The translations under genes were made by a program, and so were the position numbers. Positions 20,701 to 29,580 of a stretch of DNA of 64,000 bases are shown one piece after another (positions within the stretch are counted from its first letter, which is position 1; every line of letters starts with the position of its first letter). Source of the DNA: an uncultured Methylophaga sp. (lineage in GTDB: Bacteria > Pseudomonadota > Gammaproteobacteria > Nitrosococcales > Methylophagaceae). Where the stretch lies: contig OZ223249.1 of the NCBI GenBank assembly GCA_965140485.1, forward strand, positions 731,750-795,749, given 5' to 3'. Below the pieces are notes generated by a model. It ran no database searches. It was not told the origin of the DNA and saw only the letters and a program-made list of their open reading frames with translations.

Positions 20701-21582
20701 TCAGGCTTTACCTTGCTTAGCCATGCCATAGGCGGCAATAAAAATAAGTGCTCCACCTAACCATTCAGTCTGACTCATTTGTTCATTGGTCAGCCACCAG
20801 GCGGATATGGCGGCGACTATAAGTTCTGACAACATCAAAATGGCTGAACGAAATACTGGCATACGCGCTAAACCATATAACACCGCTATCGTCATGGCGG
20901 TAAAACATAAACCACCAAAGACCATGACCACAATCCAAAGGTTAAGACTGATATCGGGGACACTCGATTGCTGCAGAATTAATACAATCCCTGCCACCAT
21001 GACGACTCCCCAATATACGATGGTCGTTTTAACTTCCATGGCCACATCAGCAAGTTTGCGACTTAATACGTTATTCACTGAAAACATGAACCCCGCAAAT
21101 AAGGCTAACCAGTCCGCCAGATCGTTTGGCCACGGCAGTCCGATTTCCGGATGCCATAACATAATCATCGTCCCTGACATCGCGACGATAATCATCAACA
21201 TAGACAGTCGGGAAATCTTTTCGCCTAACCACCAGCGACTTAATAATACTGACCATAATGGTGATAAGTAGAAAAGCAGCATGACTCGCATTACTTCGCC
21301 CTGAGTAAGGGCGACTAAAAAAGCAATATTGGTGATACCTGCAGCAGCGGCAAGCGCCCAGAGACTCAGAGGCCAATGGCCTGAAAAATCTTTCTTTTGT
21401 CGCATCAACATAATACTTGCCACAATGGCTGCAGCAAAATACATCAATAATGTAGACCAAACGACGGGAAGGCCTTGTTGTTCGAGTAAGCGCATCGGAT
21501 ACCAAATTAATCCCCACATGGCTGAGGAAAATAAGATACCGAGTACAGCAAGATTAAATTGTTGGTTATTCGTATTTGTCAT
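20701..21582 (-). CDS. DMT/EamA family transporter
   Basis: About 10 TM helices, LFYLSPLW..LLSRWWLGEK; probable start 21582. Confidence 0.85.
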   Translation of the reverse strand: MTNTNNQQFNLAVLGILFSSAMWGLIWYPMRLLEQQGLPVVWSTLLMYFAAAIVASIMLMRQKKDFSGHWPLSLWALAAAAGITNIAFLVALTQGEVMRVMLLFYLSPLWSVLLSRWWLGEKISRLSMLMIIVAMSGTMIMLWHPEIGLPWPNDLADWLALFAGFMFSVNNVLSRKLADVAMEVKTTIVYWGVVMVAGIVLILQQSSVPDISLNLWIVVMVFGGLCFTAMTIAVLYGLARMPVFRSAILMLSELIVAAISAWWLTNEQMSQTEWLGGALIFIAAYGMAKQGKA

Positions 21583-21654
21583 GGCACACCTTATAACACG
21601 AGATGGTCTCAACCCGTTATAATGGTCGGATTTTTCACTCATTTATTTGGAATT

Positions 21655-22848
21655 ATGAATCCAGAACTGGCAAAACTGCACCCCTATCCTTTCGAGAAGT
21701 TAGCACAGCTTAAGCAAGGCTGTGTACCACCGGAAGATAAGGCACATATTGCACTGTCGATAGGCGAGCCTAAACACCCTACGCCAGGATTTATCACCGA
21801 AGCGGTCATCACACATTTACACGGTTTATCATCCTATCCCACCACAGCGGGTACCAATGAGCTCCGTCATACTATTGCGACCTGGCTAAATACCCGGTTT
21901 AATCTGGATGGGCATATCAATGCTATGACCCAAGTTTTGCCAGTGAATGGCACGCGTGAAGCTTTGTTTGCTTTTGCCCAAGCAGTCATTGATCGTGATA
22001 AAGCACCATTAGTATTAATGCCTAATCCGTTTTATCAAATCTACGAAGGTGCAGCTATTCTGGCCGGTGCAGAACCCTATTATATGAATTGCTCCGCCAG
22101 TAATAATTTTATTCCCGATTTTGAAGCCATTGGTGAAGAGACCTGGCAACGTTGCCAACTGATCTATATCTGCAGCCCTGGCAATCCAACCGGCGCGGTT
22201 ATTGACCAAGTCACTCTGACACGTTTAATTGAACTAGCTCACCAGTATGATTTTGTCATTGCTGCCGATGAATGTTACTCAGAGATTTATCCCGATGAAG
22301 CCAACCCACCGGTCGGTTTATTAGAAGCAGCTTACGCGGCTGGTTACACCGATATGAGCCGCTGTGTTGTTTTTCATAGTCTGTCAAAACGTTCGAATGC
22401 CCCTGGCTTGAGAAGTGGTTTTGTCGCTGGTGATGCTGATATTCTGAAACAATTCCTACGTTATCGCACCTACCATGGCTGCTCAATGCCACCGGCTACA
22501 CAAGCGGCCTCCATTACCGCCTGGAATGATGAAGATCATGTGGTGCATAACCGTGAGCTGTATCTGGAAAAATTTAATGCGGTATTAGAGATTTTATCGC
22601 CAGTGATGTCAGTGTCGATGCCCCAAGCCGGTTTCTACCTTTGGGCTGAAACACCGATTGCTGATACTGAATTTGCCAGACAACTATTTGAACAACAAAA
22701 TGTCACCGTATTGCCAGGCACCTATCTGGGTCGGGACACCACCGCAGGCAACCCAGGTTCAAATCGTATTCGCATGGCCTTGGTTGCCCCGCTGGAAGAA
22801 TGTATTGAAGCTGCAAATCGCATTCGCAGCCTTATTGAAAGTTTATAA
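21655..22848 (+). CDS. dapC: N-succinyldiaminopimelate aminotransferase
   Basis: LHPYPFEKL, SIGEPKH, CSPGNPTG, DECYSE, SLSKRSNAPGLRSG; upstream of dapD; probable start 21655. Confidence 0.93.
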   Translation: MNPELAKLHPYPFEKLAQLKQGCVPPEDKAHIALSIGEPKHPTPGFITEAVITHLHGLSSYPTTAGTNELRHTIATWLNTRFNLDGHINAMTQVLPVNGTREALFAFAQAVIDRDKAPLVLMPNPFYQIYEGAAILAGAEPYYMNCSASNNFIPDFEAIGEETWQRCQLIYICSPGNPTGAVIDQVTLTRLIELAHQYDFVIAADECYSEIYPDEANPPVGLLEAAYAAGYTDMSRCVVFHSLSKRSNAPGLRSGFVAGDADILKQFLRYRTYHGCSMPPATQAASITAWNDEDHVVHNRELYLEKFNAVLEILSPVMSVSMPQAGFYLWAETPIADTEFARQLFEQQNVTVLPGTYLGRDTTAGNPGSNRIRMALVAPLEECIEAANRIRSLIESL

Positions 22849-22871
22849 TTAAATCAATGGAGTAGACACCA

Positions 22872-23693
22872 ATGAGTGATATTCAACAAATTATTGAAGA
22901 GGCGTTTGAACGTCGCGCTGATATTAATCCAGCTAATGCTGACAGCGATGTTAGAAATGCAGTTAATGAAGCACTCGCTATGCTGGATAACGGTTCAGCT
23001 CGTGTGGCAGAAAAACAAAATGGCGATTGGGTTGTTAATCAATGGCTGAAAAAAGCGGTTTTATTATCATTCCGTTTAAATGACAACAAGATCATGCCTG
23101 GTGCAGAAACTAACTATTTCGACAAAGTTGATCCTAAATTTGCCAGCTTTAACGAAGATGACTTTAATAAAGCCGGTGTTCGTGTTGTTCCACCAGCCGC
23201 TGTTCGTCGTGGCTCATACATCGCACCTGGTGTTGTACTTATGCCCTCTTATGTCAATATCGGTGCTTATGTTGATTCAGGCACCATGGTTGATACTTGG
23301 GCGACTGTAGGCAGCTGTGCTCAAATCGGCAAAAACGTTCACCTTTCAGGTGGTGTTGGTATCGGTGGTGTATTGGAACCATTACAAGCTGGCCCAACAA
23401 TCATTGAAGATAACTGCTTTATTGGTGCGCGTTCTGAAGTTGTTGAAGGTGTTGTTGTTGAAGAAGGCTCAGTTATCTCAATGGGTGTTTACATTGGTCA
23501 AAGCACAAAAATCTTCAATCGTCTGACCGGTGAAATCACTTATGGCCGCATCCCAGCAGGTTCTGTTGTGGTTTCAGGTAACTTACCGTCTAAAGATGGT
23601 TCATACAGCTTGTACTGCGCGGTCATCGTCAAACAAGTTGACGAAAAAACACGCGGCAAAGTCGGTATCAACGAATTATTACGTGATATCTAA
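22872..23693 (+). CDS. dapD: Tetrahydrodipicolinate N-succinyltransferase
   Basis: [40 protein letters not shown]. Confidence 0.97.
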
Positions 23694-23717
23694 TATCTGA
23701 ATAGATCAGTAAAATTT

Positions 23718-23756
23718 AGGGGATGGGTATATTGTTTACTCATCCCCTTTTCTTTA
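23718..23756 (+). terminator. Intrinsic terminator/attenuator after dapD
   Basis: AGGGGATGGGTA-tattgtt-TACTCATCCCCT followed by a T-run. Confidence 0.65.
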
Positions 23757-23781
23757 CAGCTTGATAACAATGTGACGAACT

Positions 23782-24120
23782 ATGATTCTCTACGGTATTA
23801 AAAACTGCGATACAGTAAAAAAAGCCAAGCGGTGGCTTGATGCACATTCAATTGACTATCAGTTTCATGATTTTCGCCAGCAAGGCCTTGAAGAACAGAC
23901 GATCAGAGAATGGCTTCAATCCGTTGACTGGGAGACTTTATTGAATAAACGAGGAACCACCTGGCGCAAGCTGGATGATCCACGTAAAGAGCATTTGGAC
24001 AAAGACACAGCGGTTGAACTAATGCTGGAAAACCCTACTCTGATTAAGCGACCTGTTGCGGTAAGCAACTCAACAACCATAGTCGGATTTAATGAAGATG
24101 TTTACCAACAATTTAATTAA
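23782..24120 (+). CDS. yffB: ArsC/Spx family YffB-like reductase
   Basis: LYGIKNCDTVKKA, LLNKRGTTWR, PTLIKRP; typical neighbour of dapE. Confidence 0.85.
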   Translation: MILYGIKNCDTVKKAKRWLDAHSIDYQFHDFRQQGLEEQTIREWLQSVDWETLLNKRGTTWRKLDDPRKEHLDKDTAVELMLENPTLIKRPVAVSNSTTIVGFNEDVYQQFN

Positions 24121-24610
24121 CTTAGGTTTTCCAGGTAGGGTTCTGGCACTTTTATTCTTATTCGCTCCTCTAGCTGGCTTTGCAGATGATACAAAGCATG
24201 AAGATAGTTACTTTGATCATTATTATCTTCAAGGCGGCACTTATTTGCACTATACCGATAGTGATGACTATACCGGCACAAAAATATTTACTTCGCTGGA
24301 AGGCGTTAAGTCGAATGACTGGTTGTATGGTCTAGCCTTATTTGACAACTCTTTTGGCCAGTTTTCCCAGTATCTCTATACCGGTAAGAGCTGGAATTAC
24401 CATGGTAAATTTGAAGGATTCCACACCAAGCTAACCGCGGGCTTTATCCATGGTTATCGAGGTGATTATAAGGATAAAATCCCACTCAATCACTTCGGTA
24501 TCGGGCCAGCGATAATCCCTGGCATCGGTTATGATAATGGCAAATTTGGTGCCGATGTCATTATGTTAGGTGGCGCAGGATTATTATTTACTGTCGGCAC
24601 TCATTTATAA
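24092..24610 (+). CDS. Small outer-membrane beta-barrel resembling Pseudomonas-type PagP (PA1343) lipid A palmitoyltransferase
   Basis: Signal peptide; YLQ..TY.H, F.NSFGQ.S.Y.Y.GK, KLT.G...GYRGDYKDKIPLN.FG..PAIIP..G pattern as I recall it for that family; terminal beta-strand. Confidence 0.6.
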   Translation: MKMFTNNLINLGFPGRVLALLFLFAPLAGFADDTKHEDSYFDHYYLQGGTYLHYTDSDDYTGTKIFTSLEGVKSNDWLYGLALFDNSFGQFSQYLYTGKSWNYHGKFEGFHTKLTAGFIHGYRGDYKDKIPLNHFGIGPAIIPGIGYDNGKFGADVIMLGGAGLLFTVGTHL

Positions 24611-25762
<1,152 letters not shown>

Positions 25763-25772
25763 GCAAGTTCTC

Positions 25773-26063
25773 TTGTATCCAAGACAATACAAACGGCACT
25801 ATCTATATGTGTTAGCAGCCATTGTGCTGCTATTGCAGTCGTTTGCTGTCTGGCATGATGCCGAACATCCTTTCCATAAAGCTGAAGCGCAATGTGAGCG
25901 CCTCAATGCCATTGGTCATTTTCCACTTGCTGATGTTACTGCAGATGTCAGTATTTATCTGCAACAGACTGTTATCAGTCTCGAAGTAGAGTCTCCCATA
26001 ACCACTCTGCCATTCGCGCAGCGTCAATCCTATCTTATCCGCGCCCCACCTGCTTTTTCATAA
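25773..26063 (+). CDS. DUF2946-like upstream leader protein with His/Cys motif and C-terminal RAPP arrest motif
   Basis: TTG start; hydrophobic N-terminus LYVLAAIVLLLQSFA; WHDAEHPFH...C...H; ends YLIRAPPAFS. Confidence 0.75.
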   Translation: MYPRQYKRHYLYVLAAIVLLLQSFAVWHDAEHPFHKAEAQCERLNAIGHFPLADVTADVSIYLQQTVISLEVESPITTLPFAQRQSYLIRAPPAFS

Positions 26064-26161
26064 CCTCTCCTACCCTCTTTATTTTTAATCACACTACGGA
26101 TCCGTTTAACGTTTGATCTGTAGCTATAGCTTATGGCTATGAGGAAAGTTTATGAAAAGCA
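26051..26161 (+). promoter_or_regulatory. mRNA structure able to sequester the RBS and start codon of the 26152 gene
   Basis: 26051-26063 TGCTTTTTCATAA pairs with 26150-26161 TTATGAAAAGCA (1-nt bulge); CCTC 26064-26067 pairs with SD GAGG 26141-26144. Confidence 0.6.
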
Positions 26162-27531
26162 AAAAACTGCTTGTGCTGCTGATGACAGCTGCACTGAGCC
26201 CGGTATCACCTGCGTTCGCCGGCGATATTGACGATCTGAAACAAGAAATAGCAAAAATGCGTGCTGATTATGAGCAACGCATTCAACAACTCGAACAACG
26301 TTTATCTGATGCAGAAGCGACCACTCAGGCCGTTGCCGATGAGGTAGCAGCAGTACCAGAAGCTCCCATTCCGGTGGCTTCGGCAAACAGTAGCAATACG
26401 TTTAATCCTGCTATTAGTATGGTCTTAAACGGTACCTTCAGTCAGTATCAAAATAATGCAGATGATTACGCTTTGGATGGTTTTAATGTTCAAGGTGAAG
26501 GTGGCTTAAACGAAGAAGGTTTTTCTCTGGGTGAAAGTGAGTTAACTGTAAGCTCGAATATTGATCAATTATTTTATGGTCAGGCTACACTGGCAGTGCA
26601 TGAACATGAAGGTGAAACAGAACTTGAAGTTGAAGAAGCCTATATTGAAACTCTAGGCTTAGGCAATGGCTTAACTGTTCGTGCTGGTCGTTATTTTTCT
26701 CCCATTGGTTACTTAAACGAACGTCATGCTCATGCGTGGAACTTTGCTGATGCGCCATTAATTTATCGTGGACTGTTTGGCAATCAACTTTCTACAGATG
26801 GTGTGAAACTCTCTTACCTATTACCAACTGATTATATGCTCGAGGTGGGTACCAGTGTCGGCAATGGTGATAGTTATCCTGGCAGTGGTGATCACAGTGG
26901 TATTGGTGACTGGCTGGTCTACGCCAAAACCGGTGGTGATATTGGTATAGAAAGCAGCTGGCAAGCAGGTATTTCTCATTGGCGCTCAAGCCCTGATGAT
27001 CGTTCTTATGATGGTGGACACCACCATGGTCATGATGAAGATCACGATGAAGACATTTCAGCAATGTTCAATGGTGATACTGATATCACGAATCTGTCTC
27101 TAGTTTATAAATGGGCACCGAACGGTAACTTCCGTCAGGAAAATCTGACCTTGATCGGTGAGTTCATGTATCTACATGATGATGGTGATATCAGTCATGG
27201 CAGTGATGAGTTCGCTAACTACGATGGCAAACAATACGGCGGTTATCTGGAAGGTATTTATCAATTCAATCCACAATGGCGTTCCGGTGTCCGTTATGAC
27301 TGGTTAGGTAGCAAACATCGTGCATCAGATGATGAATTGCTGGCAGATGCAGGGCTTGAAGGTGGTAGAAGCCACCCGCAACGTACCAGTGCCATGGTGG
27401 AATACTTACCGAGTGAGTTCAGCCGTATTCGCGCGCAGATTAATCATGATCAATCCTATAGCGATGATGATTGGCAAATGATTCTGCAATACACCGTTAG
27501 TCTTGGCGCTCATGGCGCGCACCAATACTAG
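26152..27531 (+). CDS. His-rich outer-membrane beta-barrel, putative Zn/metal uptake porin or receptor
   Basis: Signal peptide, N-terminal coiled coil, FNPAISMVLNG, GYLNERHAHAWNF, HHHGHDEDHDED loop, C-terminal GAHGAHQY. Confidence 0.8.
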   Translation: MKSKKLLVLLMTAALSPVSPAFAGDIDDLKQEIAKMRADYEQRIQQLEQRLSDAEATTQAVADEVAAVPEAPIPVASANSSNTFNPAISMVLNGTFSQYQNNADDYALDGFNVQGEGGLNEEGFSLGESELTVSSNIDQLFYGQATLAVHEHEGETELEVEEAYIETLGLGNGLTVRAGRYFSPIGYLNERHAHAWNFADAPLIYRGLFGNQLSTDGVKLSYLLPTDYMLEVGTSVGNGDSYPGSGDHSGIGDWLVYAKTGGDIGIESSWQAGISHWRSSPDDRSYDGGHHHGHDEDHDEDISAMFNGDTDITNLSLVYKWAPNGNFRQENLTLIGEFMYLHDDGDISHGSDEFANYDGKQYGGYLEGIYQFNPQWRSGVRYDWLGSKHRASDDELLADAGLEGGRSHPQRTSAMVEYLPSEFSRIRAQINHDQSYSDDDWQMILQYTVSLGAHGAHQY

Positions 27532-27540
27532 GAGTTCATA

Positions 27541-28434
27541 ATGAAAACACTTATTTTCACTGTTTTATTTTTATTGAGCTCACCAGTATGGGCTCAACTG
27601 TCTGTATTCGCTTGTGAACCTGAATGGGCATTCTTAACTAAAGAGTTAGGTGGTGATGATGTTTCGGTGTTTAGTGCGACCAGTGGTTTACAGGATCCGC
27701 ACTATATCCAGGCACGCCCGAGTCTGATTGCTAAAGCACGTCAAACCGATTTATTGGTTTGTACAGGTGCCGAGTTAGAAGTGGGTTGGTTGCCATTACT
27801 TCAGCGTAAAGCAGGTAACCCCAATATTCAGATTGGTGCTGAGGGCTATTTCATGGCGGCAGATTATGTCCGATTACTGGAAAAACCTGTCACTGTCGAT
27901 CGGAGTCAGGGCCATGTTCATGCAGCAGGTAATCCACATATTCAAACCAGTCCGGTGAATATTTTTAAGGTAGCGCAAGCGCTGACTGAAAGGTTAAAAC
28001 AACGTGATCCTGAACATGCCAGCAACTATGAAAAACGCTGGCAGGATTTTCAGCAGCACTGGCAAACAGCTATGAAACAATGGCAAGAGAAAGCAGCGCC
28101 TTTGAAAGGTGTGCCGATTGTTGTGCAGCATAAAAACTGGATTTACCTGACCAAATGGTTAGGACTGAACGAAGTCGCTGTGCTGGAAGCGAAACCTGCC
28201 GTACCACCCACTGTAAAACAGTTGCAATCAGTAGTTGAGAAGCTGAAACAAACACCGGCAAAAATGGTGATTCTGGCAGCCTATCAATCACCAAGAGCCA
28301 CAGATTGGTTGGTGGATAAAACAGGCATCAAAAAAGTGGTACTGCCATTCACCGTTGGTGGAGATAAAAACAGTAATAACTTGTTTGAGCTTTATGACGA
28401 CACCATCAACTTATTACTGGATGGCGCTAAATGA
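27541..28434 (+). CDS. Cluster A-I (ZnuA/TroA-like) metal-binding periplasmic protein
   Basis: QDPHYIQARPS, GAELEVGWLP, DRSQGHVHAAGNPH, HKNW, LEAKP. Confidence 0.88.
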   Translation: MKTLIFTVLFLLSSPVWAQLSVFACEPEWAFLTKELGGDDVSVFSATSGLQDPHYIQARPSLIAKARQTDLLVCTGAELEVGWLPLLQRKAGNPNIQIGAEGYFMAADYVRLLEKPVTVDRSQGHVHAAGNPHIQTSPVNIFKVAQALTERLKQRDPEHASNYEKRWQDFQQHWQTAMKQWQEKAAPLKGVPIVVQHKNWIYLTKWLGLNEVAVLEAKPAVPPTVKQLQSVVEKLKQTPAKMVILAAYQSPRATDWLVDKTGIKKVVLPFTVGGDKNSNNLFELYDDTINLLLDGAK

Positions 28435-29195
28435 ACCTGATCAATCTTGATTGGTCGCTAATATTGCCTGCCCTCGTGGCAGGCATGTTAGTTCTGACAA
28501 CACATGTGCCTCTGGGTCAGGAAGTACTCAAGAGAGGCATTATTTTTATTGACCTTGCCATTGCACAAATGGCCGCACTAGGTGTGATGGCCGCCACCAT
28601 TTTTGTTGGTGATATGCATGGTCCCTGGCTGCAAGTCAGTGCTGCTACCAGCGCGCTCTCCGCCTCCGTTTTAGTGCTGTGGTTAGAGAAACGATATCCG
28701 CATATTGTCGAAGCATTAATCGGCTTATTATTTATATTGGCCGCTAGTGGTGGGATTTTACTTGTCAGCCATGCACCACATAGTGATGAATTACTCCATG
28801 ATTTATTAGTGGGTCAGATTTTGTGGGTTACGCCTTCTCATCTGTTATGGGTCACGGCACTCTATGCTGCCTTATTAATTGTGTGGTTTACCATGCAATC
28901 CCAGCGTAGCTGGCTGTTTTATATTATATTTTCACTGACTGTCACAGCCTCCGTACAATTAGTGGGTGTGTATCTGGTCTTTGCCAGTTTAATCTTGCCC
29001 GCTTTAGCCAGCCGTGGATTTGAAAAACCCTATCATAAGCTCATGCTTGGTTATGGTATTGGCTTTCTCGGTTATTTCTTTGGGCTGATTTTAGCGTTAT
29101 TACTTGATGTGCCAATGGGCGCCATGACAGTTTGGACTTTATTTGCTCTGGTGGTATTAAGCCGCTTTATGATGCAGTGGCTAAATAGACGATAA
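28431..29195 (+). CDS. ABC-3 (ZnuB/MntB-like) metal permease
   Basis: THVPLGQEVLKRGIIFIDLAIAQMAALG, LLVGQILWV, LVGVYLVFASLILPA; ATGA overlap with the binding-protein gene. Confidence 0.82.
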   Translation: MNLINLDWSLILPALVAGMLVLTTHVPLGQEVLKRGIIFIDLAIAQMAALGVMAATIFVGDMHGPWLQVSAATSALSASVLVLWLEKRYPHIVEALIGLLFILAASGGILLVSHAPHSDELLHDLLVGQILWVTPSHLLWVTALYAALLIVWFTMQSQRSWLFYIIFSLTVTASVQLVGVYLVFASLILPALASRGFEKPYHKLMLGYGIGFLGYFFGLILALLLDVPMGAMTVWTLFALVVLSRFMMQWLNRR

Positions 29196-29235: not shown

Positions 29236-29580
29236 ATGAGCGAATCAACACAAGCCAGTCAAAACACCGTCAAACTCGTGTACTTATTATTTATTGCCAA
29301 TATTATTATTCAGTTCTTAGGTTTTGTGGCAGTGGTCATTGCTTACATAAATAAAGACGATGCCGCCGCTTGGTTACAATCTCACTATCAGTTTCAAATT
29401 AGAACATTCTGGATAGGTTTTCTGTATCTATTTATCGGCGTGTTATTCGCGTTCTTTTTAGTTGGCTATTTCATTTTAGTATTCTGGGTTATCTGGGTTG
29501 TCATTCGCTGTGTCAAAGGTATGAAATACCTGGATCAGCAACAGCCACACCCTAATCCAAACAGCTGGCTGTTTGGCTAA
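29236..29580 (+). CDS. Small membrane protein (DUF4870-like)
   Basis: VYLL...AVVIAY....A..WLQSHYQFQIRTFW...W...RCVKG. Confidence 0.7.
   Translation: MSESTQASQNTVKLVYLLFIANIIIQFLGFVAVVIAYINKDDAAAWLQSHYQFQIRTFWIGFLYLFIGVLFAFFLVGYFILVFWVIWVVIRCVKGMKYLDQQQPHPNPNSWLFG

Follow-up and report, generated by a model that had tools for sequence, protein, structure and literature searches.

A 96-codon open reading frame (ORF) was found between dapE and a gene cluster for a porin, a ZnuA-like binding protein, and a ZnuB-like permease in an uncultured Methylophaga sp. (GenBank assembly GCA_965140485.1). The 64,000-nucleotide stretch of contig OZ223249.1 that was analyzed, positions 731,750 to 795,749 of the forward strand, is called the window below. 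This ORF is probably a regulatory leader of the kind represented by CruR and CutF, whose nascent chain would sense a metal, most likely Zn(II), and gate the start site of the downstream gene. Every sequence element of the leader is conserved, the predicted helix between its end and the downstream start site covaries, and the genes behind it are of the zinc type. A reading of the window from its letters alone (the sequence-only reading) had proposed a metal-sensing arrest peptide together with a stem that sequesters the ribosome-binding site (RBS), and its coordinates for the ORF, the motif, and the pairing arms all agree with the sequence. Its interpretation is partly supported: the comparative evidence bears out most of it, and the membership in DUF2946 fails. 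The stalling, the identity of the metal, and the relief of the stall by metal are what we infer from that evidence.

The leader peptide (MYPRQYKRHYLYVLAAIVLLLQSFAVWHDAEHPFHKAEAQCERLNAIGH...SYLIRAPPAFS, with its TAA stop at 26061 to 26063) has 41 homologues by a word-based search, nearly all of them 96 amino acids long and the named ones all from Methylophaga. A six-frame search recovered the ORF in 23 of 24 other Methylophaga genomes; with the single sequence as the query, none of 16 genomes from outside the genus gave a match. Alignment of the genus sequences revealed an invariant block, LLLQSFAVWH-x3-H-x-FH-x4-QC-x-R, and an invariant end, I-R-(A/G)-P-P followed by three residues and the stop, separated by a middle part of hardly conserved sequence and constant length. 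Such a pattern of conservation would be expected for an arrest peptide with a sensor. The Pro codons of the end motif are at 26046 to 26051 and are followed by the A-F-S codons and TAA. R-A/G-P-P near the C terminus of a small protein with a localization signal is the makeup of RAPP-type arrest peptides, and only two other ATG-started ORFs of 40 to 220 amino acids in the 3.14-Mb genome carry R[AG]PP within 8 residues of their stop. From the toeprint of CruR (PMC12992588), the P and A sites of the stalled ribosome would be expected to hold Pro92 and Pro93, respectively.

The AlphaFold2 model of the leader (mean predicted local distance difference test score, 74.7; 91 to 98 over residues 11 to 30) has a helix at residues 4 to 31, a loop at HPFH, a second helix at residues 38 to 48, and coil from there on. 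The hydrophobic segment at residues 12 to 27 is predicted to be a signal-anchor or Sec signal. The positive residues before this segment, the model, and the fixed 48-residue tether together suggest a topology in which the putative His3-Cys site lies on the periplasmic face of the anchor. The window peptide carries a single cysteine, in C41-E-R-L, and no CxxC, as the sequence-only reading had pointed out, and some distant relatives keep a CxxC that begins at the position of C41. H49 is seven residues past C41, not six as that reading had it. By inspection, residues 23 to 28 (25839 to 25856), S-F-A25 followed by V-W-H28, fit the -3/-1 pattern of signal peptidase, and many family members have small residues at the positions equivalent to S-F-A25; cleavage after A25 would leave an N-terminal X-X-His end like the amino-terminal Cu/Ni (ATCUN) motif.

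A profile of the genus sequences matched 55 representatives at an E value of ≤1e-3 among 1.84 billion representative proteins, and the distant members keep the same architecture. In a wide alignment of 33 diverse sequences, Q22, H35, C41, R90, P92, and P93 are invariant, and H28, H32, and F34 are conserved in at least 90%. The distance from the Cys to the Arg is 46 to 49 residues and is exactly 48 in 66 of the 84 sequences that carry both motifs; the arrest motif in these 84 is RAPP in 74 and RGPP in 9, and three residues follow the PP in 63. An even sample of 400 Gammaproteobacteria, searched in six frames with the wide profile, gave matches, mostly full-length, in 89 genomes (74 of 320 genera). 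Most of these ORFs evidently escape gene callers, which explains why so few proteins of the family are found in databases compared with these 89 genomes. In one genome of the clade to which the window belongs, a second, weak leader match (L033, G021:C1:785400-785576; E value, 0.008) lies in a 408-amino-acid frame 3 kb upstream of the true leader.

Scans of the leader against Pfam and NCBIfam found nothing significant. The kinship with DUF2946 (PF11162; gathering score, 23.7 bits), for which the sequence-only reading had called for a hidden Markov model (HMM) search, was borne out neither by HMM nor by profile-profile comparison: the window peptide and 24 genus members gave no match at E values of ≤1, a six-frame search of the genome itself gave none at E values of ≤10, and hhalign of the wide alignment against three true DUF2946 sequences reached 8.7% probability, over the transmembrane region only. 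DUF2607 (PF10795; gathering score, 24 bits) likewise matched neither the window peptide, nor the genus members, nor the six-frame genome, and hhalign of the genus alignment against one true DUF2607 member gave 2% probability. Distant family members match DUF2607 over their full length at 16 to 20.8 bits, below the 24-bit cutoff, and two distant relatives match the C-terminal half of DUF2946 weakly (14.7 to 15.3 bits). The DUF2607-model alignments of three sequences stop exactly at the second Pro of RAPP, and from these end points DUF2607 itself appears to end in RAPP. A bona fide DUF2607 gene (29.9 bits) was found in a genome of another family (G312), where it encodes a 92-amino-acid peptide with a transmembrane segment, a His/CxxC cluster, and the end ...TRAPPHFL, and heads a porin-ZnuA-like-ABC-3 operon homologous to that of the window. 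A word-based homologue search with this DUF2607 protein gave no match, and a DUF2607 search at the level of the order around G312 found only one additional weak match. On these comparisons we place the Methylophaga peptide in a DUF2607/DUF2946-like group, as a branch that has diverged, and not as a formal member of either family; its nearest curated family is DUF2607 (ZrgD), reached only through intermediates.

The long-range helix of the sequence-only reading was recovered as the minimum free energy (MFE) structure when 26040 to 26170 was folded with RNAfold (-32.8 kcal/mol; z score, -4.58), and none of 200 dinucleotide shuffles was as stable. In this structure TGCTTTTTCATAA (26051 to 26063) pairs with TTATGAAAAGCA (26150 to 26161), with 26051 to 26057 and 26059 to 26063 forming the 5' strand around a single bulge at 26058. 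The arms and the inner hairpins are as had been drawn, but the register at the Shine-Dalgarno sequence (SD) is not: GAGG (26141 to 26144) had been paired with CCTC (26064 to 26067), whereas in the MFE structure AGGA at 26142 to 26145 pairs with UCCU at 26068 to 26071 and AG at 26147 to 26148 pairs with CU at 26065 to 26066. The GAGG:CCUC pairing is an equivalent alternative register. In the free RNA, the SD has a probability of 0.05 of being unpaired and the AUG one of 0.00. When 26040 to 26060 was made unavailable in constrained folding, 9.6 kcal/mol was lost and the value for the AUG rose from 0.00 to 0.72. A ribosome protects some 12 to 15 nucleotides downstream of its P-site codon; with Pro92 (26046 to 26048) in the P site its reach would therefore extend to about 26058 to 26062 and cover nearly the whole main 5' arm. 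An mRNA helix that sequesters the downstream SD and AUG within reach of a stalled ribosome is the arrangement of CutF- and SecM-type leaders.

The pairing was looked for in 23 Methylophaga loci, many of them closely related, by folding each from the Arg codon to +15 of the next gene and taking as the tail the stretch from the second Pro codon to 10 nucleotides past the stop. The leader tail pairs directly with at least two of the four SD-core bases in 22 of the loci and with at least three in 20, and in the clade of the window the AUG is paired too. This pairing recurs despite intergenic regions of 63 to 181 nucleotides, differing inner hairpins, and differing downstream genes. The 5' arm sets in between 2 nucleotides before and 8 nucleotides after the end of the second Pro codon, and when 85 windows were slid along the leader mRNA, the tail ranked first or close to first as a partner of the RBS in most loci. 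Compensatory changes, which the sequence-only reading had suggested looking for, are present in the arms: GCU...AGC of the window is GUU...AAC in one locus (L007), altering a residue in both proteins, UUU...AAA is CUU...AAG in another (L011), and at the stop codon UAA...UUA is replaced by UAG...CUA. Among 24 loci from other gammaproteobacterial families, whose tails are quite unlike those of Methylophaga in sequence, 18 have a tail-RBS duplex that beats 95% of shuffled tails (median z score, -2.6), and three further distant loci have the same arrangement. RAPP, the His/Cys cluster, and the RBS-sequestering helix are thus kept in orthologous and distant loci alike, beyond what chance would give.

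These features suggest the following mechanism. The leader would share a transcript with dapE, and its translation would probably be coupled to that of dapE. Its N-terminal hydrophobic segment would bring the chain to the Sec machinery and place the H28/H32/H35/C41 cluster at the periplasmic face, with the conserved 48-residue tether spanning the exit tunnel and the translocon during an arrest at R90-A-P-P93, Pro92 in the P site and Pro93 in the A site. Occupying 26046 to about 26061, the arrested ribosome would keep the 5' arm (26051 to 26071) from the SD/AUG region (26142 to 26161); the start site would be accessible, and the porin, ZnuA-like, and ZnuB-like genes would be translated. Binding of metal, most likely Zn(II), to the nascent His3-Cys site would release the arrest, the released ribosome would terminate three codons on, and the helix would re-form and block initiation. 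The naked C-rich, G-poor RNA would then probably allow Rho-dependent polarity as well. That metal binding releases the arrest we infer from the logic of importer control and from CruR. The features of the locus are collected in Table 1.

Table 1. Features of the dapE-leader-porin locus, in window coordinates
Feature	Position	Strand	Basis or remarks
dapE (M20 succinyl-diaminopimelate desuccinylase)	24632..25762	+	Pfam Peptidase_M20 4.7e-45, M20_dimer
Leader ORF, candidate arrest peptide and metal sensor	25773..26063	+	TTG start, 96 amino acids; 41 homologues, genus-wide conservation
Hydrophobic segment, residues 12-27 (LYVLAAIVLLLQSFAVW), preceded by K7-R8-H9	25806..25853	+	AlphaFold2 helix; LLLQSFAVW invariant in genus
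Putative metal site H28-x3-H32-P-F-H35-x5-C41	25854..25895	+	H35 and C41 invariant, H28, H32, and F34 at least 90% in 33 sequences
Spacer, residues 42-89, variable sequence, fixed length	25896..26039	+	Cys-to-Arg spacing; AlphaFold2 coil past residue 48
C>G tract, possible rut site	25973..26110	+	C 36-44%, G 8-15% in 78-nucleotide windows
Arrest motif R90-A91-P92-P93 (CGC GCC CCA CCT)	26040..26051	+	R, P, and P invariant family-wide
5' arm: last base of Pro93 codon, A-F-S codons, TAA, CCUCUCCU	26051..26071	+	MFE structure; equivalent arm in 22 of 23 loci
Two inner hairpins, 26094-26123 and 26125-26141	26094..26141	+	MFE structure; inner structures vary between species
3' arm: SD GAGGA (26141-26145), spacer, AUG (26152-26154), porin codons 2-4	26141..26161	+	MFE structure, unpaired probabilities
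Outer-membrane beta-barrel porin (BBP2/OmpL-like), His/Asp-rich stretch GGHHHGHDEDHDED	26152..27531	+	Pfam BBP2 2.7e-08
ZnuA-family periplasmic metal-binding protein, zinc-type	27541..28434	+	Pfam ZnuA 2.9e-42
ABC-3 (ZnuB/AztB-like) permease	28431..29195	+	Pfam ABC-3 1.7e-19
Small membrane protein, weakly DUF4870-like	29236..29580	+	21.7 bits, below cutoff

The last of the proposed steps concerns a C-rich, G-poor tract that runs from the last 25 codons of the leader into the intergenic region and includes a G-free, unpaired stretch of 30 nucleotides (26064 to 26093). Three anti-SD-like CCUC/UCCU repeats lie in the tract, at 26064 to 26067, 26068 to 26071, and 26074 to 26077. A rut-like (Rho utilization) unstructured C>G tract that spans the end of an upstream ORF (uORF) and the intergenic region is also a feature of cruR, where the rut region is a comparable C>G bubble and copper-triggered release of the ribosome leads to Rho-dependent termination (PMC9426467). 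By analogy, Rho-dependent polarity may reinforce the translational block. It is also conceivable, if on the unlikely side, that this is the main output: the stalled ribosome would mask the rut site, its release would lead to Rho termination before the porin, and the RBS helix would be secondary or would just keep the downstream RNA free of protecting ribosomes. The tract is pronounced, and the maximal C>G window lies at the same position, the leader 3' end, in 19 of 20 Methylophaga loci. However, the RAPP codons themselves supply part of the C-richness, the tract is short (about 100 to 140 nucleotides) with half of it inside the translated ORF, and a pure Rho mechanism has no need of a conserved, covarying anti-RBS helix. 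Both outputs, Rho termination and unmasking of the RBS, can coexist.

The choice of Zn(II) as the most likely ligand rests on the genes behind the leader, and the zinc-type target seen by the sequence-only reading was upheld. The leader heads a zinc-uptake operon, as DUF2607 does, with the porin, the ZnuA-like protein, and the ABC-3 permease downstream; a Sec or YidC component, as in SecM, MifM, and VemP systems, is not among these genes. The top NCBIfam match of the ZnuA-like protein is AztC, below the AztC cutoff. Its closest relatives in the PDB bind zinc (AdcAII, YcdH, Lmb, AdcA, and Synechocystis ZnuA), with manganese binders behind them, and three of its His positions align with conserved His residues of AdcAII. 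No ATPase gene is present within the porin-ZnuA-ABC-3 cluster in the ORF list, and G312 and two metagenomic or metagenome-assembled-genome (MAG) loci have this three-gene set too, again with no ATPase (L028, L040, and L041). In most other Methylophaga, the orthologous leader is followed by a gene for a TonB-dependent receptor of about 710 amino acids and then by the same small membrane protein. This receptor is ZnuD-like (NCBIfam ZnuD NF038289, 3e-108, below the strict cutoff of the model); in the PDB it matches ZnuD (4rdr) at 9.7e-65, with the next structure at 1.8e-13 and the copper receptor OprC at about 1e-10. The clade of the window (also G006, G020, G021, and G022; compared with L023 to L033) has the porin, ZnuA-like, and ABC-3 genes in place of the ZnuD-like receptor. 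With the leader and the final small membrane protein kept and the cargo between them swapped, this looks like an exchange of importer modules behind the same switch. In the 24 leader loci of other gammaproteobacterial families, the next gene encodes a porin of the same family in 18 and a ZnuD-like receptor in 4, and in two distant metagenomic or MAG loci the leader-porin-ZnuA-ABC-3 order appears again, with unrelated genes upstream.

That the same switch senses Cu, Ni, or Co through its His3-Cys site, and not Zn, is unlikely when set against these targets. Every characterized relative senses copper (PMC9426467 and PMC9973294), a link to Ni/Co genes has been drawn for CutF-like proteins with His-only motifs (PMC9973294), and a cleavage after S-F-A25 would give a V-W-H end resembling the amino-terminal Cu/Ni X-X-His motif. 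Against this, the regulated genes are of the zinc type in every context examined, by the ZnuA family assignment, the three His positions, and the zinc-binding PDB relatives; the ZnuD-like receptor match is far ahead of that to the copper receptor OprC; and DUF2607/ZrgD is tied to the Zur regulon (PMC9817125).

In the window, the dapE stop lies 10 nucleotides before the leader start, and in all 20 Methylophaga loci compared the leader starts 1 to 10 nucleotides past the dapE stop, often with a non-ATG codon and without a clear SD. Because the leader adjoins dapE in all loci examined, there is no intergenic room for a promoter or operator; dapE is the probable source of both the leader transcript and the coupled ribosomes, and the leader is probably translated by coupling to it. 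A scan of 25300 to 26300 for promoters found nothing, and the 3' end of dapE has no clear excess of synonymous-site conservation such as a hidden promoter or operator would give. The sequence-only reading had seen no Zur-box-like palindrome near the leader, and none was found: there is no match to an E. coli-type Zur box in the window and no convincing one in the genome. A Zur-like protein is encoded in the genome at C1:2709900-2713300, after MerC-like, DksA2-like, COG0523, and DUF1826-like genes, and the palindrome TATGATACGATATATCATA upstream of this MerC-like/dksA2/COG0523/zur cluster is a candidate Zur box that could not be validated; its only near-match elsewhere in the genome is inside a coding region, with none near dapE or the leader. 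The leader closes a lysine/diaminopimelate cluster (21559 to 25762) of an aminotransferase gene, dapD, an ArsC/Spx-family gene, a gene for a 172-amino-acid secreted protein of unknown family, and dapE. The DapE of other bacteria is a zinc-dependent enzyme, and this may be the reason why a zinc-uptake module is attached to dapE.

The tight appending of the leader to dapE, together with weak or absent SDs and non-ATG starts in many species, would also suit a constitutive coupling device without metal sensing, in which dapE ribosomes pause at RAPP and open the helix, as any translating ribosome would, for a fixed low expression of the downstream genes. We regard this as improbable: it leaves unexplained the invariant H28/H32/H35/C41 cluster, the membrane-targeting segment, and the fixed 48-residue spacing, as well as the strict association of the family with metal importers in unrelated contexts that lack dapE. 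There is an equally slim chance of the opposite logic, that of CutF, in which metal binding induces or prolongs the stall and turns the downstream genes on. CutF does have this very set of elements, with a signal sequence, a metal motif in the periplasm, a Pro motif at the C terminus, and a stem-loop that shields the SD (PMC9973294; bioRxiv 10.1101/2025.02.05.636593), but the targets here are importers (porin, binding protein, permease, and ZnuD-like receptor), whose induction by metal excess would be counterproductive, and metal releases CruR, which likewise controls an importer (PMC9426467). Least probable of all is that the ORF makes a stable small membrane protein belonging to the uptake system (a ZrgD-like accessory protein or metallochaperone), with RAPP and the RNA pairing incidental: ZrgD is listed as a zrg operon protein whose function is unknown (PMC9817125) and the N-terminal region is highly conserved, but a spacer of fixed length, neither conserved nor structured, takes up half of the protein, nothing else is conserved but a known arrest motif, located precisely so that a ribosome stalled there would cover the anti-RBS arm, and neither CutF nor CruR can be detected as a protein in vivo (PMC9973294 and PMC9426467).

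Several observations weigh against a zinc-sensing arrest leader that works by unmasking the RBS. Zn is not the only metal that a His3-Cys site could bind; Cu, Ni, and Co are others. The window peptide has no significant HMM or profile match to DUF2946 or DUF2607, so that homology to the characterized sensors rests on shared architecture and weak transitive matches. A promoter and operator may lie inside the coding end of dapE. The sequence-only reading expected coverage of the 5' arm to free both the SD and the AUG; this held for the AUG in constrained folding and not for the SD, which re-pairs weakly with the second CCUC (26074 to 26077) and has a probability of being unpaired of 0.15. The predicted opening of the initiation region is thus large but perhaps incomplete, and the switch may be partial. 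One of the 23 Methylophaga loci and 6 of the 24 distant loci have no convincing tail-RBS duplex, and the close relationship of many Methylophaga loci means that their counts overstate the number of independent events.

Metal-sensing arrest peptides have so far been shown experimentally only for copper, in CruR and CutF (PMC9426467, PMC9973294, and bioRxiv 10.1101/2025.02.05.636593), and bacterial zinc uptake is described as being under transcriptional control by Zur. A catalogue of RAPP/RGPP uORFs includes ones upstream of TonB-dependent receptors and other metal genes (PMC12992588); neither of two survey papers mentions zinc or Znu (PMC9973294 and PMC12992588), the CruR paper does not mention zinc (PMC9426467), and our literature search found no paper tying ZnuD or ZrgD to translation arrest. 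A zinc-responsive nascent-chain sensor, if real, would be a further, post-transcriptional layer of control, one that takes its reading from the periplasm. More tentatively, and with somewhat less than even confidence, we suggest that the whole under-annotated family of leader peptides (transmembrane segment, H-x3-H-x2-H-x5-C, and RAPP), found in roughly one Gammaproteobacterium in five and taken to encompass Vibrio ZrgD/DUF2607, forms a translational layer of zinc homeostasis, maybe independent of Zur, in which the nascent chain senses periplasmic Zn(II) and gates the translation, and possibly the Rho-dependent read-through, of outer-membrane zinc importers; in Methylophaga, this would let a zinc-uptake module without its own promoter sit behind the housekeeping gene dapE. 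With a zinc-responsive sensor of this kind ZrgD/DUF2607 would gain a function, and the small ORFs ahead of ZnuD-type receptors and of the porin-ZnuA-ABC-3 module in many lineages would be explained. Methylophaga offers a clean test bed, with no intergenic promoter region, a simple helix, and natural compensatory variants.

Among the known systems, CruR (Bp2923) of Bordetella pertussis is the prototype of Pfam DUF2946, whose hallmark is a fixed distance of 45 residues from CxxC to RAPP (PMC9426467); of the motif variants, RAPP and RGPP arrest most strongly, and the toeprint of CruR puts its two Pro codons in the P and A sites of the stalled ribosome (PMC12992588). Like CruR, the window leader is a small exported uORF at the head of a metal-uptake operon, with a Cys metal motif at a fixed distance from RAPP, RAPP three residues before the stop, and a C>G tract at the 3' end of the ORF, and in the proposed logic metal would likewise relieve the arrest and turn the importer off. 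The position of RAPP, here at residues 90 to 93 of 96, and a fixed spacing are shared with DUF2946, the CxxC/CxxxC motif is not: CruR has a CxxC and responds to copper, whereas the leader has three His and a single Cys and zinc-type targets, with a spacing of 48 residues compared with 45. Furthermore, CruR acts through Rho, has no described RBS-sequestering helix, and can dispense with its signal peptide, whereas a helix is predicted for the window leader, which does not match the DUF2946 HMM.

With CutF of Rhodobacter capsulatus (PMC9973294; bioRxiv 10.1101/2025.02.05.636593) the leader shares a Sec-targeted nascent chain, a periplasmic metal motif, a C-terminal proline arrest motif, and an mRNA structure that shields the SD of the next gene, which in CutF is a stem-loop melted by the stalled ribosome. 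CutF differs in its CxxxC, its EF-P-dependent PPP-type motif, its copper-induced stalling, and its target, a detoxifying multicopper oxidase, compared with RAPP and importers here; moreover, in the window the last codons of the leader itself pair with the RBS, and the helix so formed closes a 70-nucleotide loop. ApdA, ApdP, and SecM (PMC7897499, PMC10951233, and PMC10987492) have the same arrest motif, I-R-A-P-P here compared with G-I-R-A-G-P of SecM, and unmasking of an RBS, as proposed here, is the typical output of such monitoring substrates. They monitor Sec/YidC activity from upstream of sec or yidC genes, whereas the window leader stands before metal importers and has a conserved cluster of metal ligands.

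DUF2607 is ZrgD, encoded by the first gene of the Zur-regulated zrgDACBE cluster of Vibrio (PMC9817125); the searchable literature assigns no function to ZrgD and does not describe it as an arrest peptide. Although the window peptide falls below the DUF2607 threshold, it shares the link to zinc with this family, and a bona fide DUF2607 protein with a transmembrane segment, His/Cys cluster, and RAPP heads the same porin-ZnuA-ABC-3 module.

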